Positions 1,806 through 62,360 of a DNA stretch of 64,000 nucleotides are shown here, piece after piece. The notes below the pieces were generated by a model. It worked only from the letters and a program-made list of their open reading frames with translations. It did no database searches and was not told where the DNA came from. A program made the position numbers and the translations under genes. The stretch's first letter is position 1. Every line of letters begins with the position of its first letter. Source of the stretch: Eledone cirrhosa (taxonomy: Eukaryota); NCBI GenBank assembly GCA_964016885.1, contig OZ024740.1:85870001-85934000 (forward strand), given 5' to 3'.

Positions 1806-3227
<1,422 letters not shown>

Positions 3228-3948: not shown

Positions 3949-4034
<86 letters not shown>

Positions 4035-12700: not shown

Positions 12701-12952
12701 CAGATTACGAAACTGCAAAGGTAACGAGATTTGTCCGAAAGTTCGAATCGGCGAACAATTTACTGCCTGCAACTCAATAGGCGTCTCAGGGGGAGTCTCC
12801 TTCATACAACACACAGGCCATACGGAACAAGCTGCACCTGTGTCAACCAGAAAAGCTCTACCTGACAGCAGGTCCTCAATGAAAAAGTGGCGGTTAGATG
12901 TTGTTTCGCAGAGCGCACTATCCGCCGTTAGTGACTCTGGTCGTCTTTTCCC
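9770..12952 (-). CDS. pol: Gypsy Pol polyprotein (protease, RT, RNase H, integrase), uninterrupted
   Basis: LVDTGA, PWASPL, YRRLN, MPFGL, YIDD, VDAS, TDHKPL, ADALSR, HHCC zinc motif, HIDIVGP, TDRG, NGMVER, GPY. Confidence 0.97.
12914..12952 (-). promoter_or_regulatory. -1 programmed ribosomal frameshift signal at the gag/pol overlap
   Basis: Slippery heptamer G GGA AAA in gag phase (12946-12952), followed after 6 nt by the hairpin cagag-t-cacta-acggcgga-tagtg-cg-ctctg. pol is in the -1 frame. Confidence 0.8.
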
Positions 12953-13708
12953 TCGTAAGCACAAGGAGGCCTACAACGGGCGGCTTTTTTACCATATCTT
13001 TCATGGTAATAACAACATGTTGTTCCTGGTGTGTTGGAAGGGCTACGGTGGCGAGAAGTTGAATAACGTCGTGAGCGGCTCCTCTGCCGTCCAAAGGACC
13101 TGAATTCCGTGCACAACTCCGCCATTTGACGAGTCATGGCTTCCATAGTTGTGATTAATTTGTCATCAGACGCTGATGAGCGTGATTGAGGAAGAGAAGA
13201 GGAAGCAACGTACTTTGGCTTCGAAGTGTCTCTCTTCGTCACCTCTACAATTTTGTCAGCAGAGACAGCAATGTGATCCAGGGTATTCACCTCTAGCATA
13301 TGGGCTAGGATCGCCTGTACCTCTTGAGGTAGGCGAGAGAAGAACAATTGCTTCAGGAAAGGGCTATCCTGATCTTGGGAATCGCTCAAATCCCGCAAAT
13401 GCCGGAGAAAAGCGGTAGGGGTCCTGTCACCTAATCGTTCGTCCTCGATCAGTGACCGAAAACGACTCTCTACCGACTTACAATTCCTCCTCAAAATCTC
13501 GCCCTTCAAAAACTCATACGTCAAGTCAGAGGGGGGGGGGGTCTGTAATTAGGTCTTGGACCGAATCTGCTAGATTAGGGGGAAGGCCGCTAATCAGTAC
13601 AGCGAGGCGCTGGTCAGATTCGGTCTTACAGACCGTAAAATACGCCTGTAACTGGGCAAACCACATCTTAGGTTTTCCAGTAAAGGCGGGCAAATGTGGT
13701 ACATTCAT
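12928..13708 (-). CDS. gag: Gypsy Gag, split by a frameshift at a homopolymer run (about 13530-13541)
   Basis: [48 protein letters not shown] and the C-terminal [18 protein letters not shown] knuckle. Confidence 0.9.
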
Positions 13709-39265: not shown

Positions 39266-39267
<2 letters not shown>

Positions 39268-42200
39268 AAGGCGGGTAAAATTCCCGAGATCCATGGACGA
39301 GTTCTCTCCAGCGGTCTCTGTCCCTCATTATCGCTGCCATATCCTGCATCTCCAACAGACCAGTGTCTGTCCTTAGGGCATCAACATATGTTAACCTTGG
39401 TCTTCCTCTTCTAGTGTGTCCATGTAGGGGCTCCCAAAGGAGCACTGAGTGCAATGTCAACTCTGGATGTCGGTGAGCATGTCCAGCCAACCTCAGTCTC
39501 CTCTGTGTCACTTTTGAGCTGACTTTTGGGATGCTCCCATACAGCTCTGAGTTTTTCATCCTCAGTGTATACTGATTAATGTTCAGAGCCATCCTCAGCA
39601 TTCTCGTGTAGCACCCATCCACCATCTGAGTGAGTCTCTTGGTCAGTGTCCAAGTCTCAGACCCATACAGCAGCACAGACTCCACTGCAGCAATGAAGAG
39701 GCGGATTTTCAGGTATCTACGAAGGTCCGACTTCCACACCGATCTCAAGCTGTGACACGCCGCCCAGGCCTTGCTCTTCCTCCCAACCACATCATCTTCC
39801 GTATTCCCAATCTTTGCTCCCAAATACAGGAAGTCCTCAACCAATTCCAGCGGCTTCCCGCCTACATTAGTGATCCCCTCTGGCTTCTCAACATTCTCCA
39901 CCAGATATTTTATTTTAGTCTCATTCATTCTCAGCCCCACACTCATCGACACAGTCTCAACCTCCCGCATCAAATCCTCTGCCTCCTTCACTGTATTTGT
40001 CACCAAAACTATGTCGTCGGCAAATTCAGCATCCGATACCTTTTTCGCCCCAACTCTCCTGCTCTGAGCCGGTGCTACAGTAAAGCCAGTGTCCTGGTAT
40101 TTCTCCAGTGCAAGGCGCATACAATAGTCAACTACGATGATAAAAAGGTAGGGAGCCAATGTATCTCCCTGGAGCACTCCAGCCAGTATCTCAAAGAAAT
40201 CTGTCATCCCATCAGGTGTAATGACTTGGGCTTTGGTGTTGGTGTAGAGCAGTGATATCAGGTCCACTATCCTCTTGGGGATTCCATAAGCCTGTAAGAT
40301 CTTCATCAAGCAGTAACGGTCCACAGAATCAAAGGCCTTCCTAAAGTCAATGAAAACCATGACCGCAGGAAGGCACTTTGCTCTAGCTCCCTCTAATATC
40401 CTCCTCAGCATCAGGATGTGACTGGTGGTTGATCTACCCTCTCTGAAGCCGTTCTGGTTGTCCCTGAGCTTCTTCTCCATCTCAGGCTGGATCCTGTTAA
40501 GAATCATCCTGTTGAGGGTCTTTGCCACAAGTGACGTCAGTGAGATCCCCCGGTAGTTGTTGGTGTTAGAGAGATCTCCCTTCTTTGGCACTGGGACGAT
40601 GTTACTGATCCTCCACTGATTCGGGGCAACTCCTTTCTCCAGTGCCCCGTTACAGAACCCCAGGATGATATCATCAAAATCACACCTCTTCATCACCTCT
40701 GATGCCACTCCATCCTCTCCATGAGCCTTGCCCTCCTTGATCTTCTTCTTGGCTCTCTGAAGCTCCTCTCTGGTGAAGGGCTCTGTCTCAACACCCAGTC
40801 CCTCAAACAGCCGCCTGATCTCCCCACTGCTCTGGGCTGTGGAGGGTGGCTCTCCTAGTAGGGTCCTAAAATGGTCTAGCCATTTCCTCTTCCTATCCTC
40901 GGGCCCCGTTCCCTGGATCTGACTCGAACACCTTTTCTTCCTCCCTGTGATCTCGTTGATGATCATCCAGCTCTTCTTACATCCAGATCTGTCAACCGCT
41001 CTCTCCACACTTCTGATCTTCTCTATCAGTGCCTCCTCTCTGACCTCAGTGTAAGCGGTACAGAGCTCTTCCCTCATCACCTCCACAGTCTCCATCCTCT
41101 CCTCCGTAGGATCAGCATAGAATTGGTCCCTGGCAGCTTTCAGGTGTTCTCTGGCTGCACACACTTTTGGGTTTGCAGAGCTGACGTGCTTCCCTTTGTT
41201 CTTTTTCCTCGGCACCAGGGTTTCACTTGCTTTCGCCACTGCATTGGTGAAGTGCCCGTACCTCCTCAGTCCATCCAATCTCTCTCTCCTCTGACTCTCC
41301 ACACAGAGCACTAAACCTGTTTCTCACTTCCACTGTGAACCTCTCCTGTAGCTTATCATCTTCCTTGAAAGCTCCCCAGTCATAGATTGTTCTCCGGGGC
41401 TGAGCCTTGCTCTTTCTTAAGCTCACGCGGACCTCACTCATAACAAGCCGGTGGTCACTACCCAGTGTACTGAAATAGCTGTATGGTTCCGTGTTCAGAA
41501 CACTATTCCGCCACTTTTTCCTCACCAGAATGAAATCAATCTGGGACTTGGACAGGTGCATATCTGAGATGTAGGTCCACATCTTCCCCAGATTCTTCCT
41601 AAACCTTAGGTTGGTTGCCATCAAGTTCGCCTCCAGCAGGGTGTCTCTCAGTAGTCTTCCATTTCAGTTGGTGTTGTTATGGAAGTACCAGCAAGGATCT
41701 TCACTGCCCTCCTTACTCAGATGTGCATTGAAGTCCCCCAAAACAAGCAGGATATTGTGTGCCTGAGTGGTGTTGACAGCCCCACACACCTCCTCATGGA
41801 ACTCCTCGGCATTCACATCACTGTCCCTCTCGGTTGGACTATAGGCTGAGATGACTGTCAGTCTTGGGTTTCCATTGAAGGTCACCCTCAACACTCGCGG
41901 GGAGATAGGCATTATTTCCCTCACCAACAGATTGGTTTTTGCACTGAACACAAAACCCACTCCTCCTACTGCAGCATTTGTTGTGTTCTTCACTGCCGAT
42001 GTAGTGATGAGCTGGCTCTTCCTCCCGATCATCACACTCCTCACGGGCTCATCGTGTAGAATCCTGTGTTCTTGGATCGCAAGTATCTGTATACCACTCT
42101 CCTCGAACAGATGTCCCAACTCCTCTCTCTTCTCCAGCGTTCGAATAGTCCTCACATTCAAAGTGCCCATTTTGATGGCTCTTCTGCAGGACAAAACTGC

Positions 42201-42386
42201 ATTCTTTATATTTGTCTCAGAGACAGCTGATCCATCATCCACTGGCCCTCTCTGTGGCTCTAAGCCAGCAGAGTCATAACGACCAGGGTGCTCCTTGACA
42301 GTGTAATTAGGGGCTCTAACCCTAGTGCTGTTAGATCGACTCTCCATATTTCTTTTCAATGGCTGACAATACCTTACCGGCGCCAC
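39266..42386 (-). pseudogene. APE endonuclease plus reverse transcriptase (frameshifts near 41664 and 41280)
   Basis: GTLNVRT, QEHR, YSPT, GDFNAH, IDFILV, SDH; YRGISL, QNGFR, IDFRKAFD, GVLQGDTLAP, FADD, FLYLG, RLRLAGH. Confidence 0.95.
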
Positions 42387-42560
42387 TCGAATAAGGTAGT
42401 TATTTAACCCATAAATGGAGCCCTAACAGGTACTACCACCCCGGGCCAGGACAGACCTGGGAGTCATGACAACTAAGGGGTAACTCCACATTCCCCACAT
42501 CTCCTGAACTCCCGAACTGGAGCCTTGCCACTGGATGTAGTTTAATGTCATACCCAGGAC
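39266..42560 (-). mobile_element. Full-length RTE/RTEX-clade LINE inserted in (TA)n
   Basis: A structured 5' leader, then a single APE+RT ORF with two frameshifts. Both ends abut (TA)n. Confidence 0.92.
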
Positions 42561-42575
42561 ATATATATATATATC

Positions 42576-44245
42576 AGAATAAAAATAGACCAAGAGATAA
42601 AATGTCCTCATCAGTAGTCTGCTGATTATCGTTGGTATTTCGACGCATTAAAGACTAGATACCTAAAATCAGTGCGAGCGATAACTCAATTAAGTTATCG
42701 GGACAGTGAGAAAACAGAGGGAAGGAAACAAACACATGGTAGTATGCAACGTAAAGAGAGGAAAATAGAGACAAGTCAATGAATCTTGTGGGCTTAAGTC
42801 CGACAAATAAAATTGACGAGGAGAAATAGACACGTCCGAGCCGCGAGAAGATTGAGAGAGGAAAGAAATTCAAGAAGGTCAGACGGGAGGAAGTGAGAGA
42901 GGGGGAGAAGCAGAGAGGGGGTGAGTGAACGTGTGAGGAAGGGGCCAGCCGAGAGTGAGTGACCAGCAACGGGAGATGAGGAAGGCAAGAGGTGAAGGAG
43001 AGAGAAAAGGTGATAGATAACTTAATTGAGTTATCGCTCGCACTGATTTTAGGTATCTAGTCTTTAATACGTCGAAATACCAACGGCAATCAGCTGACTA
43101 CTGATGAGGACATTTTATCTCTTGGTCTATTTTTATTCATATGTTCATGTTCGCAACAACGCCTCACGCCATTCTTCATTCACATATTTTTTCCCTTCAT
43201 GTGGTTCGTATTTTTTCTGTCCCTTTACTGCTATCACCTTTTCTCTCTCCTTCACCTCTTGCCTTCCTCAACCCCCGCTGCTGGTCACTCACTCTCGGCT
43301 GGCCCCTTCCTCACACTTTCACTCACTCCCTCTCTGCTTCTCCCCCTCTCTCACTTCCTCCCGTCTGACCTGCTTGAATTTCTTTCCCTCTCTCAATCTT
43401 CTCGCGGCTCGGACGTGTCTATTTCTCCTCGTCAATTTGATTTGTCGGACTTAAGCCCACAGGATTCGTTGACTTGTCTCTATTTTCCTCTCTTTACGTT
43501 GCATACTACCATGTGTTTGTTTCCTTCCCTCGGTTTCCCACTGTCACGATAACTTAATTGAGTTATCGCTGGCACTGATTTTAGGTATCTAGTCTTTAAT
43601 GCGTTGAAATACCAACGATAAACAGCAGACTACTGATGAGGACATTTTATCTCTTGGTCTATTTTTATTCATATGTTCATGTTCGCTCAACGAAGCACGC
43701 CATTCTTCATTCACATATTTTTTCCCCTCGCTGTGGTTCGTATTATTTTCTGTCACTTTACTGCTATTACCTTTTCTCTCTCCTTCACCTCTTGCCTTCC
43801 TCAACTCCCGCTGCTGGTCACTCACTCTCGGCTGGCCCCTTCCTCACACTTTCACTCACTCCTTCTCTGCTTCACCCCCTCTCTCACTTCCTCCCGTCTG
43901 ACCTGCATGAATTTCTTTCCCTCTCAATCTTCTCGCGGCTCGGACGTGTCTATTTCTCCTCGTCAATTTGATTTGTCGGACTTAAGCCAACAGGATCCAT
44001 TGACATGTCTCTATTTTCCTCTCTTTACGTTGCATACTACCATGTGTTTGTTTCCTTCTCTCTATTTTCCCACTGTCCCGATAACTTAATTGAGCTATCG
44101 CTGGGACTGATTTTAGGTATCTAGTCTTTAATGCGTCGAAATACCAACGATAATCAGCAGATCACTGATGAGGACATTTTATCTCTTGGTCTAATTTTAT
44201 TCATATATTCAATTTTGGAACAACGCATCACGCCATTCTTCATTC

Positions 44246-44247
<2 letters not shown>
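42576..44247 (+). mobile_element. ORF-less tandem repeat (532-bp unit, about 2.3 copies) with a 5' inverted copy of about 440 bp; retrozyme-like
   Basis: CTGATGA at 43101, 43633 and 44165 (period 532). 42576-43015 is an inverted partial unit. (TA)n flanks. Confidence 0.9.
43052..43114 (+). ncRNA. Candidate hammerhead with reversed strand order (also at 43584-43646, 44116-44178, and on the minus strand at about 42601-42663)
   Basis: Consensus GGTAT-C-TAGTCT-ttaatgc-GTC-GAA-ATACC-(13 nt)-AGACTA-CTGATGA-g-GAC. Confidence 0.6.
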
Positions 44248-44310
<63 letters not shown>

Positions 44311-44524
44311 ACATTCTTCAGGTTATCTAAAAGAAATTCTCTCCACTGGAGAGAACATTGGTTTCCAACGCAGAAGCAATAGCTATTTCAATGGAAATTA
44401 GACAACGTTAACTAGGTAATTTATGGATGCGTATATCCATATGTATACATACTTGCAGACCTATGTTTATTCCACGAAATTCATTTGGGGAATCTTGTAT
44501 GTATATATGGTGTATGTATGTTAT

Positions 44525-47500
44525 ATCTCTTTCTCTTAATTTCGAGTATATTATTTGACCGGCCACCTTCCTGGTGGCAAGGTTGTAAAAGAAAAGAAAT
44601 TGTCATCCCTTGAATCGCAAGAATGTTTTGCAAATTTTGAAGGTGCCAGCTATCGCACCCATTTGTAGACTATGAATTAGGGAGCTGCGCTTTTTGTCCG
44701 CAAATCCAAGTTCAGTCATACTTTGGTCCAAGCGGGTTGGTATATAACCCGTAGCTCCAATAATGATGGGTATGAAGCTAAAGGTGTATCTTGGATACTG
44801 GATTTGTAAACTCCTCATCAATGGTCCGTAGATGTCCTCCTTCTCCTGTATTTTTCTGACAACGTTTACATCAAGTGGGCAGCTGATCTCCACAACAGAA
44901 CACGTTTTAATGTGTGGTCCCAAACAACAATATCAGGCCGGTTGTGCTTTAATTTGGTGGCAGTTTTTATTTTCAGGTTCCACCAGTATTCCTTAGTGCC
45001 ATCTGTCTCAATATATTCTTCCTCGTTTGTTGTTAATTTTGTTTTCCGAAGTGCGTTCCAGATGGTTCTAGCTATCCCATCGTGTCTCATGGGGAGGTAG
45101 TAGCGAGATGACATTCTTTCGCAGCTGGCAACAATGTGGCTTACATCCTCGATCTTTGTTTTACATAGCCTACATTTATTGTCAGCTGCTGGCCCTCCTC
45201 ATTGGTGCAGCAGATATTTGGTAGGGAGTTCTTGTTCCTGTATTGCATAGAGATATCCCTCAAGGTGTGATGTCATAAACTTGTCGGAACTCCATGCCAG
45301 GCTTTTTGAGTGGTTTATCCCCTCTATGGTCTGTGTTTTACGCCTCAAGTATCCATGCACAACTTTTTCTGTAAATTGGTCAATTTTTTTATCTTGTTTG
45401 AACATTGAATAGGATCTTCCGATTTCTCTGGGTGAGAGATTTATATCAGGCTTTATTCCATATCTCTCCTCCAGATCAGTCGCTATTCTAATGATATTTT
45501 TTTTTTCATGCTCATAAACCTGGGCAAGATGGTTGCCAACCTTTTTCCTCTGATGAATGTGTTGCTTCAGTGTTACTATCCGGGTTTCATATGTTATTAA
45601 TATTGATTTTAGACCCCGGCCACCTTCCTTGCGTGAGAAGTATAGCCTATCCACATCACCATTGATGTTAAAGTTCCCAGTAACATTGAGAAGTTTTCGA
45701 GTTCTAACATCCATCTCACTTAGTTCTTGCAATGACCAGTTCAGCAGGCCAAATGTTGGCGTTAGAATTGGCACAGCATAAGTATTGTGGGCAATGTATT
45801 TGTTGTATGCTGACAGTTCTGATGACCATATTTTCTTTACTCTTCTGAGGTATTCTGTTCTGGTTCTCTCCTTATTTATGGGTCCATCATATCTGACATT
45901 CTCATCCTGTCCAAGATATCTGTAGTTGTCACCTGACTGAAGAGGTTGTATTGTCAGGCCGTTCATCTCTAGATTTCTAGAGGAGAGCACAGCTCTTCCA
46001 CGTTTTACTGCCAAATATGCACACTTGAACTCACCAAATTTCATTTTGATGTCGGTTGAAAATTGTGTAATGAGGTCCAATTGTTTCTTGATGTCATTGA
46101 TATTTGGCCCATACAACTTCAAGTCATCAACAAAGAAAAGATGGGAGATACTTCTGGGCCCACTTCTTTGTCCACCTTGTTTCCTGAGTAGGTAAGATAG
46201 TGGATTCAGTGAGAGAACGAAGAGTAGCACTGACAAGCTATCACCCTGAAAGATGCCCTTCTGGTAATGTATCTTATCAGTCTTAACTTGCTCCTTCTCA
46301 CCTCTAAGGATCAAATTGGTGTACCAGTTCTTGGTCAGGCGTTCAACAGCAGCTACCAATGGTTGTGGGACTTTAGCTAACTGTAAAGCCTTAATAATCC
46401 ACCCATGAGGTACACTATCAAATGCTTTTTGATAGTCCAGCCACACCACAGTCATGTTTCTGCGATTATTTGTTGTTTTTTCCTGAATCATTTTGTTAGT
46501 TAGTAGGTGATCTATGCAACCCCACACCTCCCTCTTTCCACCAGCTTACTCAGGTGTTATGATGTTGTTGGTAGTACGGTGATCCTGTAAGAACAGGTTA
46601 AGGCACCCAGTATATAATTTATACATGATGTTTTGGCAGGCTATTGGGTGGTAATTTTTAGCAAGGGTGGTCTGGCTATTTTGGGGAATGAGGAGAGTAG
46701 TGGCAGTTGATAACCATCTGGGCAGTTCTTGTGTGCCTTTAATGGTTTCTGTAAACAGCCGTATGAGATCTTGCCGATAGAAAGTGAAATTCTTCAACCA
46801 GTATCCTTGTAATGAGGTCTGGGCCTGGCGATTTCCTATTCGACATTTTCTCTAGAGCTGTTTCCAGTATTGACCCATCTATGACATATTGTTTTATCTG
46901 GACATGTTGGCAGTAGTCCTGTTCCAGTTCTTTTAGCCAATTAGCTTGTCTGTTGAATCCGTCATCCGTTTCCCATACAGATCTCCAGTAGCTCTCAACA
47001 TGTTCTTTTGAAGGGGTGTCGTTTACAGGGATTGAGCTGTTGCCACCGAAGCTGCGATAAACTGATTTAGGATCTCTGGCAAACAATATATTTAGCACTT
47101 GTCGTTTATGTGCTGTTGACTTATATTTTAGTCTTTCTGTTGTAGTTGTGAGTTGTTGTTTCAACTGGTGTAATTTGGAGTTCAAAGTTTTATATTTTGT
47201 ATCTCCAAATCGTCTCTCTAACTTTTTCTTTAGGTCTTCCTGGTGTCGTGTGAAGTTGCTCTCTATGTTGCATTTCATAACTACTGCGATGTGTGAGATA
47301 CTTCGTCTTAGGGACAACATTTTGGATTTTAAATTTCGCATCCACGCTGGTTCAGGCTTTCTGTTTGTATCTTGATTGCGTGGTTTTAGATGTGTGTTAT
47401 ATGATAGCAATGTGACAGCTGAAACATATAACAAAATATTAAGCGTTTCAAATGTCGTTTCTACACCTTTAGATCGTATAGCCTTCAGATAATTGCCAGC

Positions 47501-48747
47501 TATTTCATTCACCGCTTCCAATTCCAATTTAGTGGGTTCTTTACTGATTCTGGTGTTGTATGGTCTGTCACTCACATTAAGGCTGTGTATCTCTTGAAAC
47601 ATATCGTTCCATGTCACTTTTAGGGTGTCCACAAGTTTTTGGTGCTCTGTTTGTTCAGTAGAGTCATGAATTTCAGCCTCGTTGTTGATGTGGTGACAAT
47701 TACTACTAGAGTCAGCTGACCTTTCTCGCTGTTCTTCAGTGGAAGTGGGATGGATTTCAGCAAAATTGTTGGTGAGCTGTTCACTGTTAGATTTAGCTGG
47801 CCATTCTCTTTGTCTGTCAGTGGAGGTGGGGTGGTTGTCTACAAGGGCTGTATTTGTAGTATCACTCAATTCCGTTAGATGTATCAATTTACATCTAATG
47901 ATACGTTTTGCCTGTTCATTTAAATGCTTTGGAGAAAAGTCTAATTCTGGGTGTTTGGAGTTCCATAAAGTTTTTAGCCTTTGCATAAAACCGAACTTTT
48001 GGGGTTCAGATTGTTTGTATGCTTCATATAATACTTTGTTAAGCTCGTAGCTCCACTGTATACAGCGGTTGTAGTTGCGATTTGGTCGAAGGAGACTTGT
48101 ACTTTTTGCCATGATGAGTTCGTCTATTCACTAATATTTCGTATTTATTTTTCAAAATAGTCGATGATCTTCTTTAAAAGTTTCGACAAAGTTCTGTCAG
48201 AATCAAATTTAAAGTTATTCACAGCTTGGGTAATATTTCTTTTCAGTTAGTTTTTAATTCTACAACTGTGTTTTAAACGTTGTTCCGGAATCGTTTGAAT
48301 CGAGAACAAAAAGATCCGTTACTCAGTATATTTCTTTATGAATGTAACATAATATAACAACGCTGTATTTATATGTTAAAGTTTATGTATCATTCATATA
48401 AATAAGTGTTCTACAACTTATTCACAACATATTCACAGTTCAAACACTTATATTTTTGTTTCTGAATCGAAAACGTTACTTTTATATTCCTTTATAAATG
48501 TAATATAACAACGTTGCATTTATATGTTAAAGTGTATGTATCGTTCATATATCATAAGTGTATGTATCGTTCATATAAATAGGTGTTTTACAACACACTT
48601 ACAGTTCAAACACTTATGTAGAATTATTGTATGTAATCTTACTGCGTAATGTAGCTCAACTTTTTCCAATATATGGTATGTTGCCTTCATGTAAGCCGTA
48701 ATTACACACGTCCGATTATCGGACACTGACCACAACGGTCGCCATTT
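44525..48747 (-). mobile_element. Near full-length R4/Dong-type LINE (RT plus REL endonuclease) in (CATA)n
   Basis: 5' UTR of about 630 bp, a broken ORF 48112-44603 and a short 3' UTR ending in catacatac. Confidence 0.92.
44603..48112 (-). pseudogene. RT-REL polyprotein, disrupted
   Basis: KSPGPD, YHPIAC, WLDYQKAFDSVPH, GIFQGDSLS, FVDDLKLY, YRYLG, CRLC, RHD, RPDIVVWD, EISCP. Confidence 0.94.
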
Positions 48748-48854
48748 ATGTATGTATGTATGTATGTATGTATGTATGTATGTATGTATGTATGTATGTA
48801 TGTATGTATGTATAAATGTATGTGTGTTTTGGTTGTATTACATTATAAATGGCC

Positions 48855-49070
48855 GTGGATTGGTAGAAATGCTACAGCATTAGACAGCATGTTGTTCGGC
48901 AGAGTGGTGTGGTTCTTTACATTCTCAGTTCAGATCCAGCTGTGTTAGCTTTGCTTCTAATCCTTACGGAGTTGATAAAATAAAATACCAGTAGTGCAGT
49001 GGGGTCGATTTAATCGATTCTCCCCTTCCCTGATATTGTTGCCCTTGTGCCTAAATCAGAAACCATTATT
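48855..49070 (+). mobile_element. SINE copy, same family as the 37.6-38.4 kb array
   Basis: gttgataaaataaaataccagt...ggggtcgatttaatcga...ccttgtgcctaaatcagaaaccattatt. Confidence 0.7.
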
Positions 49071-49171
49071 TTATAAATTTATACCATTAGAGAGAGAGAG
49101 AGAGAGAGAGGGAGAGAGGGGGAGAGGGGGGGGGCGGTTTCTAATATAGAAACAATTTAGCTCTCTCTCTC

Positions 49172-49237
<66 letters not shown>

Positions 49238-49361
49238 GTCTGTATGTCTCTCTTTCTCTCTCTGTTTGTCTGTCTCTCTCTCTTTTTCTCTCTCTGTATA
49301 TAGGTCATAGACACCCACACATATATATATATATATATATATACACATGCACATATATATG

Positions 49362-49412
<51 letters not shown>

Positions 49413-49566
49413 ACACACACACACACACATATATGGGCTTTCCAATTTCATTTTACATTATATACACGTCTGTGTATATTTTAATTATTTAAAAATTATA
49501 AAGTGAACATGATTTTAAAAAGAATAGTTTTAAGTGAACATGATCCAACGGGTCACGGATGGTCTA

Positions 49567-49636
<70 letters not shown>

Positions 49637-50010
49637 AGTGTCTATGGTGCGAGGACCGAGAAAATCATAAATCAGGTATTAGATATCTCCTCTGGTTTTT
49701 ATCAGAACACAAACGAACAGAGTGAATATGAAAGGGAAAGAAAACTGTTTGCCCCAAAAGTCCTGTATATTATACAAAGTAAACAAAGAACCCAACTTTT
49801 TAATGCATACTTATATTCATACATGCATGCATACATTCATTCATACATACATACATATATTTATACATACATGCATTTATATATACATACATTCATATAT
49901 ACATATGTTTACACATACATATATTTATTCATACATACATACATATGTACATAGGTAGGTACGTACGTACATATGTACATAAAAACATACATACATACAT
50001 ACATACATAC

Positions 50011-52417
50011 AAAAAAACAACAACAAAGAATCGCAGAAACATGACGGTGGTGTGGCTGGACTATCAAAAAGCATTTGATAGTGTACCTCATGGGTGGATT
50101 ATTAAGGCTTTACAGTTAGCTAAAGTCCCACAACCATTGGTAGCTGCTGTTGAACGCCCGACCAAGAACTGGTACACCAATTTGATCCTTAGAGGTCAGA
50201 AGGAGCAAGTTAAGACTGATAAGATACATTACCAGAAGGGCATCTTTCAGGGTAATAGCTTGTCAGTGCTACTCTTCGTTCTCTCACTGAATCCACTATC
50301 TTACCTACTCAGGAAACAAGGTGGACAAAGAAGTGGGCCCAGAAGTATCACCCATCTTTTCTTTGTTGATGACCTGAAGTTGTATGGGCCAAATATCAAT
50401 GACATCGAGAAACAATTGGACCTCATTACACAATTTTCAACCAACATCAAAATGAAATTTGGTGAGTTCAAGTGTGCATATTTGGCAGTAAAACGTGGAA
50501 GAGCTGTGCCCTCCTCTAGAAATCTAGAGATGAACGGCCTGACAATACAACCTCTGCAGTCAGGTGACAACTACAGATATCTTGGACAGGATGAGAATGT
50601 CAGATATGATGGACCCATAAATAAGGAGAGAACCAGAACTGAATACCCCAGAAGAGTAAAGAAAATATGGTCATCAGAACTGTCAGCGTACAACAAATAC
50701 ATTGCCCACAATAGTACCTAACGCCAACATTTGGCCTGCTGAACTGGTCATTGAAGAACTAAGTGAGATGGATGTTAGAACTCGAAAACTTCTCAGTGTT
50801 ACTGGCAACTTTAACATCAATGGTGATGTGGATAGGCTATACTTCTCACGCAAGGAAGGTGGCCGGGGTCTAAAATCAATATTACCAACATATGAGACCC
50901 GGATAGTAACACTGAAGCAACACCTTCAACAGAGGAAAAAGGTTGGCAACCATCTTGCCCAGGTTTATGAGCATGAAAAAGAAATATCATTAGAATAGCG
51001 ACTGATGTGGAGGAGAGATATGGAATAAAGCTTGATATAAATCTCTCACCCAGAGAAATCGGAAGATCCTATTCAATGTTCAAACAAGATAAAAAAATTG
51101 ACCAATTTACAGAAAAAGTTGTGCATGGATACTTGAGACGTAAAACACACACCATAGAGGGGATAAACCACTCAAAAAGCCTGGCATGGAGTTCCGACAA
51201 GTTTATGACATCACACCTTGAGGGATATCTCTATGCAATACAGGAACAAGAACTCCCTACTAAATATCTGCTGCACAAAAGAGGAGGGCCAGCAGCTGAC
51301 AATAAATGTAGGCTATGTAAAACAAAGATCGAGGATGTAAACCACGTTGTTCCCAGCTGCGAAAGAATGTCATCTCGCTACTACCTCCCCATGAGACACC
51401 ATGGGATAGCTAGAACCATCTGGAACGCACTTCGGAAAACAAAATTAACAACAAACGAGGAAGAATATATTGAGACAGATGGCACTAAGGAATACTGGTG
51501 GAACCTGAAAATAAAAACTGCCACCAAATTAAAGCACAACCGGCCTGATATTGTTGTTTGGGACCACACATTGAAAACATGTTCTGTTGTGGAGATCAGC
51601 TGCCCACTTGATGTAAACGTTGTCAGAAAAATACAGGAGAAGGAGGACATCTACGGACCATTGATGAGGAGTTTACAAATCCAGTATCCAAGATACACAT
51701 TTAGTTTCATACCCATCATTATTGGAGCTACGGGTTATATACCAACCCGCTTGGCCCAAAGTATGACTGAACTTGGATTTGCGGACAAAAAGCGCAGCTC
51801 CCTAATTCATAGTCTACAAATGGCTGCGATAGCTGGCACCTTCAAAATTGCAAAACATTCTTGCGATTCAAGGGATGACAATTTCCTTTCTTTTACAACA
51901 TTGCCACCAGGAAGGTGGCCGGTCAAAAAAAAATGTACTCGAAATTAAGAGAAAGAGATAAACATACATACATACATACATACTGGAAACAGCTCTAGAG
52001 AAAATGTCGAATAGGAAATCGCCAGACCCAGACCTCATTACAAGGATACTGGTTGAAGAATTTCACTTTCTATCGGCAAGATCTCATACGGCTGTTTACA
52101 GAAACCATTAAAGGCACACAAGAACTGCCCAGATGGTTATCAACTGCAACTACTCTCCTCATTCCCCAAAATAGCCAGACCACCCTTGCTAAAAATTACC
52201 ACCGAATAGCCTGCCAAAACGTCATGTATAACTTATATACTGGGTGCCTTAACCTGTTCTTACAGGATCACCGTACTACCAACAACATCATAACACCTGA
52301 GTAAGCTGGTGGAAAGAGGGAGGTGTGGGGTTGCATAGATCACCTACTAACTAACAAAATGATTCAGGAAGGTGGCCGGTCAAAAAAAATATACTCGAAA
52401 TTAAGAGAAAGAGATAA
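50011..52417 (+). mobile_element. Rearranged second copy of the R4/Dong-type LINE (downstream block + tail, then upstream block + short tail)
   Basis: 50011-51962 matches about 46480-44525 in reverse. 51980-52370 matches about 46870-46480 in reverse. 52371-52417 repeats the 3' tail. Confidence 0.9.
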
Positions 52418-52875: not shown

Positions 52876-54717
52876 ATGGCGGAAAAGATGGCAGACATGT
52901 CTGCCATTAGCTGTGCCACGCCCCCCAAGTCTGAAGAACAAAAAATAATTACAACAAAATTAGACAACGAAACAAACAAGGAAAATGAAAAAACAAATGT
53001 TAAGGAAAATGAGCAAACGGAAAACAAACAAACAGAAAATAATACAAATAACAACAGGGCAACTTTCGCCCAGAAAACAAAACAATCCATAACATACACA
53101 CCAATTGACTTAACTGCCGCCAGAGAAAAACTGGCCGAAGCGAAAAAACAAATAGTCTTGGGGGAGAACGGAATGTTTTCCATTAACTCCCCCCCCCCCC
53201 AGAATTCAAGAAAGCCAGAACAGAGAGCACAGTTCTCTTCAGAACTATACTGAACCAGACAAGAAAGCCAGCACAGCCCAGCCAAATGGAAATAGAGTTG
53301 GTCCTAAAAGACTATATGAAGAATATTCTCTTCATACGAAAGGACCGACTCTATGGCAGCATTTCGGTCCTAACAAAAGATAAGGAAACGGCGGAGAAGC
53401 TTTCCCTAAGCCCACTCTCATCGACAACATACAGCTTCTATCCCTCCTACATGGGTAGAAGAACACAGAGAGTAAAAGTAAAAACAATGCTGCCCACAAT
53501 GGACTTCTGGTGGGCTATTGCTGGCTTCATAGACATGGGCGAAGACACAATGCTGTCAATGGGGAAGGCAACTGGAGATGCGTTCCTGGGAATGGGCCTC
53601 GACATACTAGTCCAAATGAGGCCCGAAAGAATAGCACAAATCCCGGATCGCATCTGGCTGGATGACCTTACCCCAATAGATATAATTGTAGAGGGGAGAA
53701 GACCAGCATGCTATTTATGCATGGAAAGGGGACACGTTAAGGCTAACTGCCCGAAACGTATCCCCCAAAAAGGACTATTGCCCACACCCACCACAAACAG
53801 TACACTAACATCACCCACCTCCAAAAATACACTAATACCACACACAGCAAACAAAATACAGACACCACCAACCACAAACACAACACAAACATCACCACCA
53901 CCAGCACCAAACACAAGCACGACACAAAAATCACCACCACCAACCACAACACAAACATCACCACCACCATCACCAACCACAAGCACGACACAAACATTAC
54001 CACCACCACCACCACCACAAAACCCATTCCAAACAAATAATTAAAAAAACAGTAACAAATCTACCCCTCCCGCAAAAAAAAACAACTACACAACACGTCC
54101 CTCCCACCTAGCGCTGAAGAGTTTCCCCCAACTTCTGAAGAAGAAGGAGGAGAAGCCTTCAGACAAGTTAAAAGAATAAAAAGAAAACACACACCCAGCA
54201 CACCACAAATAACCCACACACAAACACCAACTCCAATCAAAAACACCCCACCCTCAACAAACAAAAATAAATCTGCGCCTCCCCTCTCCGAAACATTGAC
54301 AGCATCACAAAAAAAGACGTTGCAATACACATATATAAATAAAGAAAACAAAAAACTGGTTAAATTAATAAACAATAACCCTATGGTGCAGACCGAAGGG
54401 CCAAACTTTATCTCAACAGAGAACTTCACCCATTTAAAAATGATAAAGGTCCCTCTGGACCTTTATCGTTCCTTAAAAGAACAATTTAGACGGGACGTGA
54501 GCCCCCCTGTTTAAAACCGTTAAATCGCGTCCTCTTGAAAGATTTCCCCATAACCGCCCTTCTTCCTGACACAACTCCAAATACCCCAACCCCACCACAC
54601 ACGGGTACCCCCACACCACCACAAAACATCCCTCCACCCAACACACCTGATGCCATGGAAATTACACAACCCGGAGAGGTAGGTGCTTTTCTTTCTTCAC
54701 TTTCAACACCAAAATAG
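52876..54717 (+). pseudogene. Tx1-type ORF1 (Gag-like), disrupted, with Pro/Thr-rich low-complexity tail
   Basis: TFAQK, VEGRRPACYLCMERGHVKANCP; frameshift at the C-run near 53190. Confidence 0.8.
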
Positions 54718-54722
54718 ATCAA

Positions 54723-57700
54723 TTGAGAGTTGGCTGTTTGAACGCGCGTGGCCTGGGCTCAGCTTGGAAGCAAGCAAAGCTTCTAAATGACCTCAGGTCA
54801 CAAAGTATAGATGTGATGGTTGTTTGCGAGAGTCGGATCAGCAGCGTGAGACAGCTGGCGCCCGCCTTCGATGACTTTGAGATGCACGCATCTCTCTGTC
54901 AACCCAGAGGCGGGGGGGGGGGGGGGGGGTTGCCGTACTGCTGGATAAACGTCTGGCTCTCGACGTACAGATTGTTCACTCGGACCCGGGGGGTCGATTA
55001 CTGGTGCTGGACGTCGGAGGCGGTGAAGGCGGGGCTTTCAGACTGGTCGGTCTTTATGCCCCCTTCGGGGCGGAAAGAGCCGACTTCTTCCAGCGTCTGG
55101 AGACTTTTCTAGGAACGTCGCGTTCCCTGCTTTTAGTGGGGGACTGGAATGGAATCCTAGATGCGCGTTGGGACTATGCAGGGGCATGTCCCGATAGAGG
55201 GGGGTGTAGCAGCCTAAAGGGGTTACTCGATCGATTCGACCTGGTCGATAGATTTCGACTAGATTGTCCAACTGCGCCAACCTGGACCTGGGCAAACCGC
55301 AGTGGACAATCTAGATCGTACCTAGATAGGTTTTTGGTTAGGAGTAAGGATAGGGACGTATTTAGTTGTCCAGAACTGATCATGGTTGGCTATTCAGATC
55401 ACAAATTAGTGACCTGCGTGGTCAACCTTGATAGAACGCATAGACAGGGTCCCGGTTACTGGAAGATGAACTTGTCCTTGCCGGCAAAGAAAGATTACAG
55501 GAACCGGATTAGTAGCTTAGTTAAGATGCGGTTGACGGGAGCGATCGTCAACAGCAGGTGGTGGGTATCTCTAAAGAGAGAGATTAGAGTAAGTTCGATA
55601 GGTTACAGTAAGGAACTAGCGGCAAATAGAAATAGGAAGGAAAGGGAGTTAACATATAAACTAGAAGAGGCGATTAGGAGCGGAGACGTGGCCAGAGTGT
55701 TAGCGGCGAGAACGGCGTTGAGCCAGTTCTTTGACGCGAAGCACGAAGGCTGCGTTGTCCGAAGTAAAATACGTGCTTTAGGAAACGAGGGGACCAAAGC
55801 TGTTAGCTGGGCCCGCGTGACAGAAGCCAAGAGTGGGATTAAATCCACCATTCGGTCTTTGCGAGACCAGGATGGACGGGTGATCCTTGAACCTGAGCGG
55901 ATGTGCGAGGCCTTTCAAAGGCACTTTGTTCGACTGTTCGGAGGGGGCGGGGGGCCGGACGGGGATGTGGACTTCGGTCCATACCTCGACGGTCTACCGC
56001 GTCTTTCGAGGGGTGAAGCGGAGTGCTGCTAAAGGCCAATCACAGCCACTGAAATCGGGGAAGCGCTCAGCCAATGCAGCAGACGCAAATCTCCGGGTCT
56101 CGATGGTCTACCATACGAACTTTATTTAGCTATGCCGGTCTTGTTCTCCGAACTCCTCGAGGTTGTCTATTGCAACTGGCAACAGAACCGGAGAATTCCC
56201 TGTTCTGTGACCAAGGGCGTGGTCACGCTAGTGAGGAAGGACGAGAGCAAAGGGGACGACTTAAGTAACTTTAGGCCCATAACTCTGCTAAATGCAGAGT
56301 TACAGATTTTGGCCAAGGTGTTGGCGAAGAGGTTGGCGCTTGTGGTGGGTGGTTTGGTGGGAGACGCGCAGACATGCGCTATCCCGTCCAGGTCCATTCA
56401 CGACAACCTCCACCTCATGCGATACATCGTAGAGAGGGTTGGCAACGAACCCGGCTTTGGTGGGGCCCTGATCAACTTGGATCAATCTAAGGCGTTCGAT
56501 AGGGTCGACCATGGTTACCTGGATGCGGTGCTAGCGGCGGCGGGCTTCGGACCCGTTTTCAGGGGCTGGATTTCTGCCATGCACAGTGGCAACATCTACT
56601 CTAGGATTAAAGTAAACGGCTACCTCTCGGAGCCGTTTCAAATCACCCGGTCCATCAGACAGGGGTTCCCCCTCTCCTCCCTTCTGTACGTATTGACTCT
56701 CGAGCCACTGCTGCGGAAGTTGGAGTTGCTGCGGGGCATACCCCTGGAACCGGGATTGCACAAAGCGGTCTCGGCCTATGCCGACGACGTAACAGTAATG
56801 GTGGCGGACGCCTCGGAAATCGGGGCGATCGCCACCCTACTGGAGGAATACAAAAGGCTGACGGGGACTAGGCTGAACCAGGACAAGTCAGTCGGTTTGC
56901 AACTCGGAACGTGGAGGGGCAAACCGATGCCGTTAGACGGTGTCGTCTGGCGGTGGACGGAGGGTCCGGTGAAGCTGCTCGGGGTCTGGTTCGGACCGGA
57001 CCTCCAGGTGGAAAAGAATTGGGGCGAGGTGACGAGCAGGGTGTTTGCGCTGACCCAGAAGTGGGCCAAGTGCAAACTATCACCGAAAGGTCGGGCGGAG
57101 GTGACGAACGCTTACATAGCGTCCGTCATCTACTACCGCCTGACCGTCGTGCCTTGCCCCAAGGAAAAGCTCACCATCATGGAACGCATGCTCTTCCAGT
57201 TCCTCTGGAAGAAGCGGCCTCCCATGGTGAGGAGATCCATCTGCTGCCAGCACCCTTCGAAAGGAGGGCTGGGTATGCCGTGGCTGTTGATGCGTAGGCA
57301 CGCATTGAGGCTACGGCATCTACAGGTATTCCTCAACGGTCAGCCAGTGTGGGCCCCGTTTGTGAGGCGAGCCTTCCCACAGCTCGTCTCGCTCACAGAA
57401 CTGCAATCCTGGGTGAAGCAAAGACCGAGAAAACTGGGCAACTGGCACACCGAGTGTGCCCAGGCGCTCACGGCTATCTGGCAAGCGGACCCGACTATCA
57501 GTGGAGAATCCACCTCGACATTCTATAGAGGGTTGGTGGCTAGCAAGGGCAACGACACCCTTGGAGAGTCGCTAGGCATGGAGGAGGACGAACTGGCCAG
57601 CCTGTTCGGTAGAACTTTCGGCCCGGGACCCATGGACAACTTCCAGAGGTCCCTAGCCTGGCAGTGTTACCGGGGGGCTCTGCCCGTTCGAGAAAAGCTC

Positions 57701-58159
57701 TACAGACACGGGCGCCCGGGCAGGGATCCCGCGAAAAAGATCTGTCCCAGATGCGTGCGCGACGAGGAAACCGTTGCGCATGCACTGGTACAGTGCCCGG
57801 GCGTTGCCGATCTGTGGGGCTACGTCGAACGACTGCTGTCGCGTGTGGCGCCGATTCGATTAACCGCCGAGTCTGTGGTGAACATCAAGCCGCCTCCTCC
57901 CTTCAGAAATGAAGCAGAGGCGGTCTTTCTGTGCGTAATAGCCATGATGAAAGAGGTTGTGTGGTGGACGCGCCTGAAAGGTCTGAGGTCGGGTGACTTT
58001 CTCTCCGGCCATCACCTGGTTTACTTCTTCCGATACCACTTCGGAAGAAGGATCAGGATGGAGAGAGAAGTGCTTGACCCCAGACAGTTTTATGAAAGGT
58101 GGGTGAAAGAAACGAGAATGGCCCGTGTAAATGGGCCTTCTCTCTACATTGTTCTGTAG
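54723..58159 (+). pseudogene. Tx1-type ORF2 (APE + RT + zinc motif); frameshift at the G-run near 54920 and stop at 56030
   Basis: CLNARG, YAP, GDWN, SYLDRF, SDH, KSPGLDG, FRPITLLN, DQSKAFDRVDH, AYADD, KGGLG, CPRC...ETVAHALVQC. Confidence 0.95.
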
Positions 58160-58387
58160 GTGAAGAAGTGAAGAGGAAAGGGGGAGCGCCTCCTCTCTGG
58201 GCTTCCCCCGCGAAAAGAGTTGCACACTTTTAGGGGGTATGTGCAATCCCCAACACGCCCCCTCCCTTTTGAGGACTTTTTATTGTTATATTATTATTGT
58301 TATTCCTTTTTCTTTACTCGATTTATGTAAACTCCCCCACTGTGTAAATGTCCCCTTCTTTTGTGCCCTCGTGGCAAATAAATAGAA

Positions 58388-58448
<61 letters not shown>

Positions 58449-58545
58449 CGTACCTACCTACCTACCTACCTACCTACCTACCTACCTACCTACCTACCTA
58501 CCTACCTACCTACCTACCTATCTATCTATCTATCTATCTATCTAT

Positions 58546-58662
58546 ATTCCCTTTTGAGGTTATTTTCGATTATTTTCATGTTACACCCTTTTTACTCGAT
58601 TATATGTAAACTCCCCCTTTGTATTTGTCCCTTCTTTTTATGCCTTTATGGTAAATAAAGAA

Positions 58663-58663
<1 letters not shown>
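58546..58663 (+). repeat. Isolated Tx1 3' UTR fragment between (TCTA)n tracts
   Basis: Matches 58263-58388 (tgtaaactcccc...tgtccc.ttctttt.tgcc...aataaa). Confidence 0.8.
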
Positions 58664-58708
<45 letters not shown>

Positions 58709-58709
58709 A

Positions 58710-61700
58710 TCCTCAGTTAACTAAAAAAAAAGAGGCACTACTGCCAACACCCAAAACAACAACACAACCACCACCACCACCACAACAACAACAACAACAA
58801 CAACAACAACACGCAAACACAACCAAAACACAGAACAACAAACCAACCTGCAAGCACAGTGCCACCCAACCCCACTCCACCTAAACCCACTGCAAAAAAC
58901 CCCACAAACACAACAGCTCCCCAAAACATACCCCTTCCAAATAATACAGACAGCACAACGGACGAGGCCCCCACATCATCACCAAGTGATGATGAGGGAG
59001 AGCCTCTCCGTTCGAAAAGAAAGAAGAAAAGACACCACAAGAACAAAAAAACAACAAACATCACTACAAACATACAACCACCAACACAAACAACACAAAA
59101 TTACAACCCCCCCCCGTCCCGAAAACAAAACCACGCATTCACTCCAAACACAAACACCTACAACAAAACGAAAGCTCCCACAAGAACAACAGACAAAAAA
59201 CCATCGCATAGATAGATATCGACTAGATTTTCCGACTGTGCCACTGTGGACGTGGACTAATCGCATCGGAACATCTAGATCGTACCTAGATAGGGTTCCA
59301 GTTAGAAATAAGGATAGGGATATGTTAAGCTGTCCACAAATGTTCATGGTTGCCTATTCAGATCACGAACTAGTGACCTGCATGGTCAACCTTGATAGTA
59401 CCCATGGAGAAGGACCCGGCTACTGGAAGCTGAACTTGTCGTTACCGACATGCAAAGCCTACAGTAGACGGATTAGCACTTTAGTTAAACAGCACTTGAC
59501 AGGGGCCATTGTCAACAACAGATGGTGGTACTCTCTCAAGAGGGCAGTTAGATTAGACTCGTTAGTTTTTAGTAAAGAATTAACGTTAGATAGAAACAGA
59601 ACCGAGAAAGAACTGGTAGATAAAATAGAAGAGGCAATTAGAAGTGGCAACTAGCCAGCGTGCTAGCAACGATAACGGCCTTGGACCAGTTCTTCGACGC
59701 AAAGCACGAGGGCTGCGTTGTCAGAAGCAAAATACGTGCTGTGGGAAACGAGGGAGCCAAAGCTGTTAGCTGGGCCCGAGTGACGGAGGCAAACAGTGGC
59801 AACAAGTGCACGATTCGGTCTTTGAAGGACCAAAACGGACGCGTGATACGTGAGCCGAAGCAGATGTGTGAGGCCTTTCAGCGGCACTTTGTTCAGCTGT
59901 TCGGGCAGGGCGGCGCGCCGAGAGGAGCTATGGATTTCGGTCCATACCTCGACGGCCTACCGCGACTCTCGGACAGCGAGGCGAAGTTCTGCGAAAAGCC
60001 GATTTCAGCCGCTGAGATAGGGGATGCGTTGAGCCAATGCGGCAAACGCAAATCTCCAGGTCTCGACGATCTACCCTACGAATTTTACGTAGCAATGCCG
60101 GACTTATTCTCCGGTCTCCTGGAAGCGGTCTACTGCAACTGGCAACAGAACGGGAGAATTCCCAGTTCTGTAACCGGGGGCGTAGTCACACTAGTAAGGA
60201 AGGACGAGAATAAGGGGGATGACATAGGCAACTTCCGGCCCACAACTCTGATAAACACAGAGTTACAGATTTTGGCCAAGGTGCTGGTAAAAGGCTGGCG
60301 CTTGTCGTCGAGAACCTGGTGGGAGAAGCGCAGACATGCACAATCCCGACCAGGTCCATACACGACAACCTCCACCTCATGCGATACATCATAAAGAGGG
60401 TAGGGTGTAAACCCGGCTTCGGTGGGGCCCTGATCAACTTGGATCAGTCTAAGGCTTTCGATAGGGTTGACCATCGTTACCTGGATGCGGTGCTCGGGGC
60501 GGCAGGCTTCGGACCCGTGTTCAGGGGCTGGATTGCTGCAATGCATAACAATAACATCTGCTCAAGGGTTAAGATGAACGGCTACCTTTCGGAGCCGTTC
60601 CATATCACGCGATCCATTCGACAGGGATGCCCTCTCTCCTCCCTTCTGTACGTATTGACTCTCGAGCCACTACTGCGGAAGTTGGAGCTATTGCAGGGCA
60701 TCTCTCTGGAACCGGGACTGCGAAAAGCGGTGGCGGCCTACGCCGACGACGTGACAATAATGGTGTCGAGCGCTTCGCAATTCGAGGAAGTCGGCACCTT
60801 ACTGAAGGAATACGAAGGTTCACAGGAGCGAAGCTGAACCGGGACAAGTCCATCGGTTTGCACTTCGGATCGTGGAGAGGCAGACCGATGCCTTCCGATG
60901 GCGTCGTCGGACGCTGGACGGAAGGACCAGTAAAGCTGCTCGGGGTCTGGTTTGGTCCGGACCTCCAGGTGGAGATGAACTGGAACGAGGTGTCGGCCAA
61001 GGAGTTTGTACTCACCCAGAAGTGGGCCGAGTGCAAACTATCCTTGAAAGGTCGAGCGGAGGTGGAGAACACTTTTATAGCGTCCGCCATCTACTACCGC
61101 TTGACCATCGTGCCTTGTCCAGCCAAAACGCTCGCCAAAATGGAGCACGCGCTCTTCCAATTCCTTTGGAAGAGGCAGCCTCCTTTGGTGAGAAGATCCA
61201 TCTGCTGCCAACATCCTTCCAACGGAGGGCTGTGGATGCCGTGGCTGACGATGCGCAAACACGCGCTCAGGCTGCAGCATCTCTACGTATTCCTCACCGG
61301 ACAACCGGTGTGGGCTCCGTTCGTGAGGCGAGCCTTCCCACGACTCGTCTCGCTGACCGAGCTGCAGTCCTGGGTCAAGCAAAGACCGAGGAAAATGGGC
61401 GACTGGCACATCGAATGTGCTCGTGTGCTCACAGCCCTCTGGCAGGCGGACCCGGTGATCAGTGGAGACTCCACTTCGTCATTCTATAGAGGGTTGATCC
61501 AAAGCAAGTGCGACGACGCGCTCGGTGAAACTCTAGGCGTAGAGGAAGACGAACTGGCCCCTCTGTTCGGTAGGAGCTTCCCCTCGGGACCGATGGACAA
61601 CTTCCAAAAGTCCCAGGCCTGGCAGTGCTACCGAGGAGCTCTACCAGTTCGAGACAAGCTCTACAGACATGGGCGCCCGGGCAGGGACCCTGCAAAAAAG

Positions 61701-62360
61701 ATCTGTCCGAGGTGCGTGCGAGACGAAGAAACCGTCGCGCACGCATTCATACACTGCCCGGGCGTCACTGACCTGTGGGGCTATGTAGAACGACTATTGT
61801 CGTGGGTGGGACCAATCCGGTTGACCACCGAGTCCATTGTCATGATCAAACCGCCACCCTCCTTCAAAAACGAAGGAGAGGCGGTTTTCCTTTGTGTGAT
61901 AGCTATGGCGAAAGATGTTGTATGGTGGACAAGGTTGAAAGGGCTGAGGTCAGACATCTTTCTCTCCGGCCAACAACTGATTCTTTTTTTCAAATACCAC
62001 TTTGGAAGAAGAATGAGGATGGAGAGAGAGGTGCTCTACCCCAGCAAGTTTTATGAAAGGTGGGTGAAAGTGGCGAGAATGGCCCGAGTGAATGGGCCTT
62101 CTCTCTATATCAGCCTGTAGGTTGAGGAAAAGGAGGAGGAGAGGAAAGGAGTACAAACTCTTCGTACTCCTGGAGATGAGGGTTGCACATTTTTTCGGGG
62201 GTATGTATTACGCATATGAACTGTCTCCCCCTATTGGGGGAAAATGGACTAATTTTTTAAATTGCATTTGTGATAACATTTTACACGTTTTTATTGTATG
62301 TAAACTTCCCCCTTTGTATTTGTCCCCTTCTTTTGTGCCCCTGTGGCTAATAAGGAAACA
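58710..62360 (+). mobile_element. Tx1-clade LINE copy 2: 5'-truncated, internally deleted (ORF1 joined to mid-endonuclease near 59205), frameshifted
   Basis: ORF2 peptides are paralogous to copy 1 (SYLDR, DQSKAFD, AYADD, RVNGPSLY). Ends in (TCTA)n. Confidence 0.92.

Follow-up and report, generated by a model that had tools for sequence, protein, structure and literature searches.

Structure of the insertion

The window analysed here is a stretch of 64,000 nucleotides from an Eledone cirrhosa chromosome (GCA_964016885.1, OZ024740.1, positions 85,870,001 to 85,934,000 of the forward strand). Between two (TA)n tracts it holds a non-coding insertion in which three direct copies and one inverted copy carry hammerhead strands in the order UC, GAAA, CUGAUGA, as the initial annotation of this locus had claimed. 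The features are as follows (window coordinates):

42561..42574, plus: left (TA)n flank, target
42577..44246, no strand assigned: whole non-coding insertion, an inverted 5'-truncated copy and a direct partial tandem, 2.3 units
42577..43016, minus: inverted copy, stopping 81 nt past its own predicted cleavage site, without the 40-nt tail
42608..42678, minus: permuted hammerhead of the inverted copy, with the family-majority sequence; cut predicted after C42658; core 42614-42608
43037..43107, plus: permuted hammerhead of copy 1, C17 at 43057
43039-42, plus: copy 1, upstream stem II strand
43043-48/43088-93, plus: copy 1, interaction (fourth) helix
43049-51/43082-87, plus: copy 1, kink-turn positions, 2b A lost
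43052-56/43077-81, plus: copy 1, stem III
43058-63/43095-100, plus: copy 1, stem I
43068-73, plus: copy 1, 3' strand of stem II
43074-76, plus: copy 1, GAA
43101-07, plus: copy 1, CUGAUGA
43058..43589, plus: putative 532-nt monomer between predicted cleavage sites 1 and 2
43547..43568, plus: hairpin upstream of the motif, described as a near-palindrome in the initial annotation, kept with other sequences in sister families
43569..43639, plus: permuted hammerhead of copy 2, C17 at 43589, C11.1 changed to T
43590..44121, plus: putative 532-nt monomer between predicted cleavage sites 2 and 3
44101..44171, plus: permuted hammerhead of copy 3, C17 at 44121, with damage to stem I and to the upstream stem II strand
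44203..44246, plus: 3' tail of about 40 nt, found at the direct end but lacking at the inverted one
44248..44306, plus: right (TA)n flank, target

The direct copies are spaced by 532 nt (CTGATGA at 43101, 43633 and 44165), and the (TA)n flanks, the 5' inversion, the partial tandem and the damaged stem I of the third copy are all as first described; the cleavage predicted after C43057, C43589 and C44121, which would release 532-nt monomers, likewise holds in coordinates and unit length. Only the inverted copy matches the family majority throughout the motif. Every direct copy has at least one change in a stem or at a conserved position: copy 1 is altered in stems I and II and at the kink-turn A, and copy 2 combines the C11.1 change with one change in the fourth helix. 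No match to a Penelope-like element (PLE) protein was found in the element, and the 532-nt unit has no ORF with an N-terminal GIY-YIG and a reverse transcriptase (RT). An Rfam scan of the window gave no hammerhead match at E<=1, and pseudoknot-free folding of monomer and dimer was uninformative.

The window holds other mobile elements. A second non-coding family (17304, 33934 and 34492) carries a conventional type I PLE-style hammerhead, with a long stem II loop and a palindromic stem III, and likewise occurs as a partial tandem with 5' inversion and (TA)n flanks. At 1806-3284 (minus) lies a canonical PLE remnant with RT and C-terminal GIY-YIG, followed by a conventional hammerhead-like core at about 427 (minus). 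The insertion lies immediately upstream of a LINE-like endonuclease/RT remnant (39266-42422, minus), and no link between the two was seen. Further elements, named from their ORF translations, occupy 9770-13548 (minus), 19309-22943 (plus), 44497-52370 and 54651-62120, and include a Gypsy-like pol of 1066 aa, a Helitron-like helicase, an inverted non-LTR pair and Tx1/L1-like ORFs.

Genome-wide families and covariation

The window family is dispersed in the 3.0-Gb genome and young, its best matches being 94-96% identical. A reversed-order search of the genome, as the initial annotation had proposed, returned 61 matches with a tight core pattern against 0 for the reversed control; a loose order-only pattern without pairing requirement returned 2116 against 134, both figures being inflated by overlapping matches per site; and an order-only pattern without G after the core returned 251 against 88. 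From the matches listed (100 per pattern) we chose 28 representatives by eye. Alignment A1 comprises the 18 of like spacing, which are related to one another; those with other spacings (A2, C, C2, H, D1-3, F1-2 and N4) were left out of it.

Pairing in A1 covers 75.4% of cells, against 59.4% in shuffled alignments and 29-44% with slid partners, and the 82 double-change cells (31 in shuffles) were reached in 0 of 500 shuffles. Stem I is 83.8% paired with double changes at all 6 of its pairs, stem III 84.4% with double changes at 3 of 5, and the fourth helix, the 10.x-side strand of which lies upstream, 83.3% with double changes at 5 of 6; the visibility of stems I and III was one criterion in picking the A1 rows, and that of the fourth helix was not. 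Stems I (TAGTCT/AGACTA) and III (GGTAT/ATACC) are thus present in the register first proposed, and covary. The core (CUGAnGA, GAAA and UH) is intact in 28 of 34 family copies; since the catalytic positions belonged to the search patterns, their conservation across families is partly selected. The pattern controls and the A1 covariation rule out a chance origin, and a decayed conventional hammerhead is ruled out as well, because the stems covary and no GAAA/UH follows CTGATGA within the 3' end of the element.

Several observations concern individual families. Family B (L032-L035), with a unit of about 620 nt, is the commonest split-SGC family among the order-only matches listed. In the linker between stems I and II, A1 column 45 (window 43067) is A in 17 of 18 representatives, a possible tertiary contact; a UUAAU linker recurs in cnidarian Naiads in the available part of their published sequences. 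Family E (L041-L043) and L051 were dropped for want of a cleavage block pairing upstream; L041-L043 carry CGAAA...CTGAGGA near 4000 in a 3-4 kb repeat and are probably no ribozymes. Family K was dropped as another layout, as judged from the listed rows. At C1:110428784-110428833, and in many of the no-G-pattern matches listed, CUGAGGA comes immediately after GAAA, a hairpin and C, without an intervening stem I; this abundant family is possibly a type II-like or trans-acting hammerhead relic.

Relation to published permutations

Eckert, Friedrich, Weinberg and Weinberg (2023; PMC10085705) divided the hammerhead into blocks S, G and C. According to the available text of that study, type SGC cleaves in vitro at the corresponding position and requires stems I-III as well as a fourth, interaction helix; 583 SGC sequences came from metatranscriptomes and two CSG sequences from metagenomes; none came from the genome of a known organism except one bacterial GCS candidate; CUGAnGA was assumed to be inseparable from its adjacent stem strands; and a geometric difficulty was remarked on for directly linked helices. 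The strand order at our locus had been put forward as a candidate new topology, which it is not: judged by its sequence, the window motif is of the non-circular type-SGC order, already published.

The window element and type SGC (HRIMA-1 and variants) share the order S, G, C, the full core, the short link between stems I and II, and a fourth helix that connects the stem I flank with the stem II flank. They differ in that the published stem II begins directly after CUGAnGA, whereas the 5' strand of the window element's stem II would lie mostly or wholly upstream of the cleavage block; in that a kink-turn-like loop connects both strands of its fourth helix to stem III; and in that the published examples are metatranscriptomic, whereas the window element resides on an animal chromosome. 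With the 10.x strand placed upstream, the fourth helix would join the same flanks as the SGC interaction helix, and the motif would correspond to an opening of the SGC circle at A9/G10.1 or immediately behind it. Type CSG is a circular permutation of the same circle; the window element is not CSG.

Neither published SGC descriptor, each with an undivided block C, matches any of the 28 representatives; with stem II dropped and position 7 left free, 7 of 28 match. Descriptors that miss all 28 would explain why a RefSeq search missed the class. Our literature search, which reached few subscription papers, found no paper tying permuted hammerheads to Naiads or animal genomes; the 2023 study is cited by one 2026 paper, in passing only as far as its accessible text goes, and a metagenome pattern scan gave 0 matches.

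Location of stem II

Stem II had been drawn as GAC/GTC. These pairs can be formed in the window family, but they are not conserved across families, and their covariation is at chance (44.4% paired vs. 45.2% shuffled in 18 representatives). Scored at a minimum of 5 of 6 pairs, 8 of 28 representatives offer the pre-GAAA strand a partner directly 5' of the fourth helix, compared with 1 of 28 downstream and with 0 of 28 and 1 of 28 in control windows (Wilcoxon p = 0.001 vs. one control and 0.027 vs. downstream, the rows being non-independent). In the fixed A1 register this upstream stem II is 51% paired, and its outer three pairs are not above shuffles (51/500 on the covariation score); we attribute such modest support to register shifts among families and to the decay of old copies. 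Duplex energies in the window family are similar, −3.6 kcal/mol for GAC/GTC and −4.9 kcal/mol for the upstream pairing; sister family B cannot form GAC/GTC (+0.5 vs. −6.5 upstream). It appears, as far as pairing patterns can tell, that most of stem II is drawn from the strand upstream of the cleavage site. The window family's stem II is weak (4 upstream pairs and 1-2 downstream), and is likely a hybrid of upstream CGCA/UGCG and post-core GG/UC.

A kink-turn signature between stem III and the fourth helix

The CTGATT/AATCAG helix exists and covaries; first taken for a stem III extension, it corresponds instead to the stem I-II interaction helix of type SGC. A 3x6 loop separates it from stem III in A1 (n = 18), with G at position 1b in 16, A at 2b in all 18, A at 1n in 14 and G at 2n in 14 sequences. 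All four kink-turn positions are present in 10 of 18 under strict scoring and in 12 of 18 with U allowed at 2n, where composition predicts about 0.5% per sequence; none of these positions was part of any search pattern. The arrangement is that of kink-turns including Kt-23: a 3-nt bulge, then G.A and A.G, then U.U. The window family has U at 2n, giving A.U at 2b-2n, and the available text on Kt-23 reports that A.U at 2b-2n still folds as a k-turn (PMC2790904); a k-turn is reported, in a source likewise seen in part, to bend the duplex to about 50 degrees (PMC5061560). Unlike known kink-turns, the present one is proposed inside a natural hammerhead, from sequence positions.

Such a kink-turn would let the monomer fold, since it would turn the fourth helix round towards the outer ends of stems I and II and allow the RNA to close. 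As an interaction-helix equivalent reached through a kink-turn-like loop, CTGATT/AATCAG does not by itself favour a multimer, for which it had been cited. The upstream near-palindrome, cited likewise, is present but folds as a hairpin, the variable loop of which is non-palindromic in sister families. In families C and F a bulge of 5-6 nt takes the place of the 3x6 loop; in family D and in an ostracod Naiad, stem III and the fourth helix form a nearly continuous helix of 14-15 bp that would be hard to bend in a monomer. These variants leave some room for a dimer, which is weighed below.

Permuted hammerheads at published Naiad 3' ends

In the available parts of Craig et al. 2021 (PMC8557442), Naiads are said to lack canonical hammerheads, some are labelled 'HHR_core' or 'HHR_half_core', and core halves are noted 'on either side', fitting no descriptor. 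Reading the consensus ends by eye, where line breaks may hide matches, we find permuted hammerheads at the ends of 18 of the 54 published Naiad sequences. The split-SGC layout is seen in 10 entries, some named from file order: one Clytia, three Acropora, two in the Morbakka part, one Darwinula, two Octopus and one further in the cephalopod part. An octopus Naiad consensus (supplement part 24) ends in the layout of the window family, its stems being perfect, and the 3x6 kink-turn loop of that family recurs in the octopus entries. Upstream stem II sequences of 4-6 bp differ among Naiads (GACACC/GGUGUC, GGCUCC/GGAGCC, GGCCCC/GGGGCC, GACGCC/GGCGUC and GGGGAG/UUCCCC), and several Naiads have no G after CUGAnGA yet have a 6-bp upstream partner. 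Eight passages matching 8 nematode Naiad entries contain complete type-CSG hammerheads with an interaction helix.

By eye, no core was found in three bivalve Naiad 3' ends; two core-less bivalve ends (supplement part 21) share another conserved, apparently structured motif. In the accessible portions of parts 16-19, CUGAnGA with a helix flanking it occurs at several arthropod Naiad ends, in an arrangement not readable by eye except in one ostracod entry.

Insertion anatomy and candidate helpers

Copies of the family vary in their 5' ends and show 5' inversions and partial tandems. The 3' ends run into (TA)n in 25 of 29 cases and fall into two classes, 81-85 and 116-132 nt past the predicted cut site and thus about 40 nt apart. 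The same (TA)n targets, partial tandems, 5' inversions and 30-40 nt tail are described for Naiads in the available text of PMC8557442, which also reports (TA)n targeting by other PLE clades. Unlike Naiads, the window element is non-coding, and we found no contiguous Naiad ORF in the Eledone genome loci examined; its link to Naiads therefore rests on the common ribozyme layout and the insertion anatomy.

Metazoan non-LTR retrozymes, as presented in the accessible parts of PMC7229834 and bioRxiv 10.64898/2026.07.22.740005, likewise derive from PLE ends and consist of tandem units, non-coding and a few hundred bases long, each with a single hammerhead; the present unit is a non-coding tandem of just this kind. 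They are defined and searched by type I hammerheads, whereas the window family has the order S, G, C, a non-circular permutation. The initial interpretation was right in that a Penelope-like or retrozyme-like repeat carries a non-circular hammerhead-like fold; the connection to Naiad retrotransposons had escaped it.

The genome contains long open PLE frames, and canonical PLEs are abundant and partly intact. Among 20 long-frame GIY-YIG loci, the set covered by our motif scan (the 30 short loci L052-L081 lie outside it), the endonuclease is C-terminal wherever the domain order is readable, and none has the SGC motif; where a hammerhead lay nearby, it was type I-like. Of 6 matches to a Naiad peptide-motif pattern, 1 was a true remnant. 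The 42 matches to Naiad remnants were all found to be old and broken, and none of the 40 distinct loci checked downstream has a contiguous motif; one has the motif behind a (TA)n, and the remnants are fragmented. Conversely, no Naiad ORF was found within 2.5-3.6 kb upstream of the motif at any of 23 old-family loci. A 15-nt block containing GAAA is common to one old family and, by eye, the available sequence of an octopus Naiad end.

Discussion

Our analysis suggests that the repeat is a non-autonomous Penelope-like (retrozyme-like) element, most likely mobilised by Naiads, with a self-cleaving SGC-order hammerhead that folds as a pseudoknotted monomer, and we hold this reading, with all its parts taken jointly, to be somewhat better than an even bet. 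The locus would be transcribed through, and the RNA would fold as a multiply pseudoknotted monomer: stem I would keep CUGAUGA on the cleavage strand, and stem III would keep GAAA there; stem II would come mostly from the strand 5' of the cleavage block, with G10.1 and G10.2 after CUGAUGA probably giving the first 1-2 pairs; and the kink-turn would bend stem III back, after which the fourth helix could reach the outer ends of stems I and II. A cut after GGUAUC would then trim read-through transcripts and free 532-nt units from tandems, and a Naiad-type PLE protein would copy the RNA into (TA)n sites, starting from 85 or about 125 nt beyond the cut. Several points weigh against this reading: the family is young whereas the Naiad remnants found are all old and broken, stem II is weak, and PLE hammerheads are often weak, dimeric or protein-assisted according to the available text of PMC4209133 and PMC11167929, and one of nine Xenopus retrozymes cleaved (bioRxiv 10.64898/2026.07.22.740005, likewise in part).

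The strongest competitor, to which we give a minor but appreciable share of probability, is a domain-swapped dimer, in which stem III and the fourth helix of one unit make up a rigid arm that, on the model of dimeric PLE hammerheads, passes CUGAUGA and the upstream stem II strand to the strands bearing the cleavage site and GAAA in the next unit, so that cleavage would require a tandem. PLE and metazoan hammerheads are often dimeric (PMC4209133, as far as available), partial tandems are common in the window family, the nearly continuous arm of family D and the ostracod Naiad would suit such an exchange, as would the geometric difficulty seen by Eckert et al., and by reasoning a symmetric antiparallel form closes at any arm length. 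However, the kink-turn signature lies at the exact joint in both the window family and the octopus Naiad and removes the geometric need, and stem III has no conserved palindrome.

The identity of the helper is a separate question. The ribozyme could be as proposed and the element be mobilised by a canonical PLE with a C-terminal endonuclease rather than by a Naiad, given that the long open PLE frames here are canonical, that Naiad remnants are all broken, and that (TA)n targeting extends beyond Naiads. We regard this as unlikely, because the SGC motif sits at Naiad consensus 3' ends, as read by eye in the available supplement, and at none of the long-frame GIY-YIG loci.

It is also unlikely that the fold is conserved for a role other than cleavage, as a protein-binding or reverse-transcription-start structure at a Naiad-type 3' end. 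The fixed distance of the motif from 3' ends and the split, weak stem II would fit such a role, and in the accessible text of PMC11167929 insertion of an anole PLE in vitro did not need hammerhead cleavage and no reads ended at the site. Against it, the register of UH to stems I and III is exact despite turnover of all stem sequences; H is C or A, never G, in copies unanchored by that rule; and nematode Naiads, in the entries available, retain complete CSG hammerheads. The remaining alternative, an ordinary type SGC with GAC/GTC as stem II after one extra G and an incidental upstream pairing, can invoke an extra nucleotide at that place in the HRIMA-1 descriptor (PMC10085705, available text) and the similar duplex energies in the window family, but is very improbable in view of the chance-level covariation, family B, the descriptors' failure on all representatives, and the Naiads that lack the G.

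Beyond the single locus, a wider proposition, again taken as a whole, seems to us on balance probable: far from being a rarity of viroid-like RNAs, hammerheads in non-circular permutation would be what much of the Naiad clade, together with its non-autonomous derivatives, ordinarily carries as 3' ribozyme. Nematodes would have type CSG; cnidarians, an ostracod and cephalopods would have an SGC circle whose opening lies within the core, at A9/G10.1 or beside it (a seventh arrangement, outside the three-block rule), and which is kink-turn-folded in some lineages. These ribozymes would cleave, and would number hundreds to thousands per animal genome.

If this holds, it would close a gap, since Naiads, which are dominant in many invertebrate genomes, have been reported without canonical hammerheads, a fact that had weakened the idea that PLEs need them. 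It would also move non-circular permutations from anonymous metatranscriptomes to animal chromosomes, at high copy number and in several phyla, and would add an arrangement excluded by the three-block model. The constructs are short and testable, and the split layout would explain why standard descriptors and Rfam miss the class. In addition, the CSG, hybrid and fully split forms would provide a related series in which the origin of ribozyme permutations may be studied.
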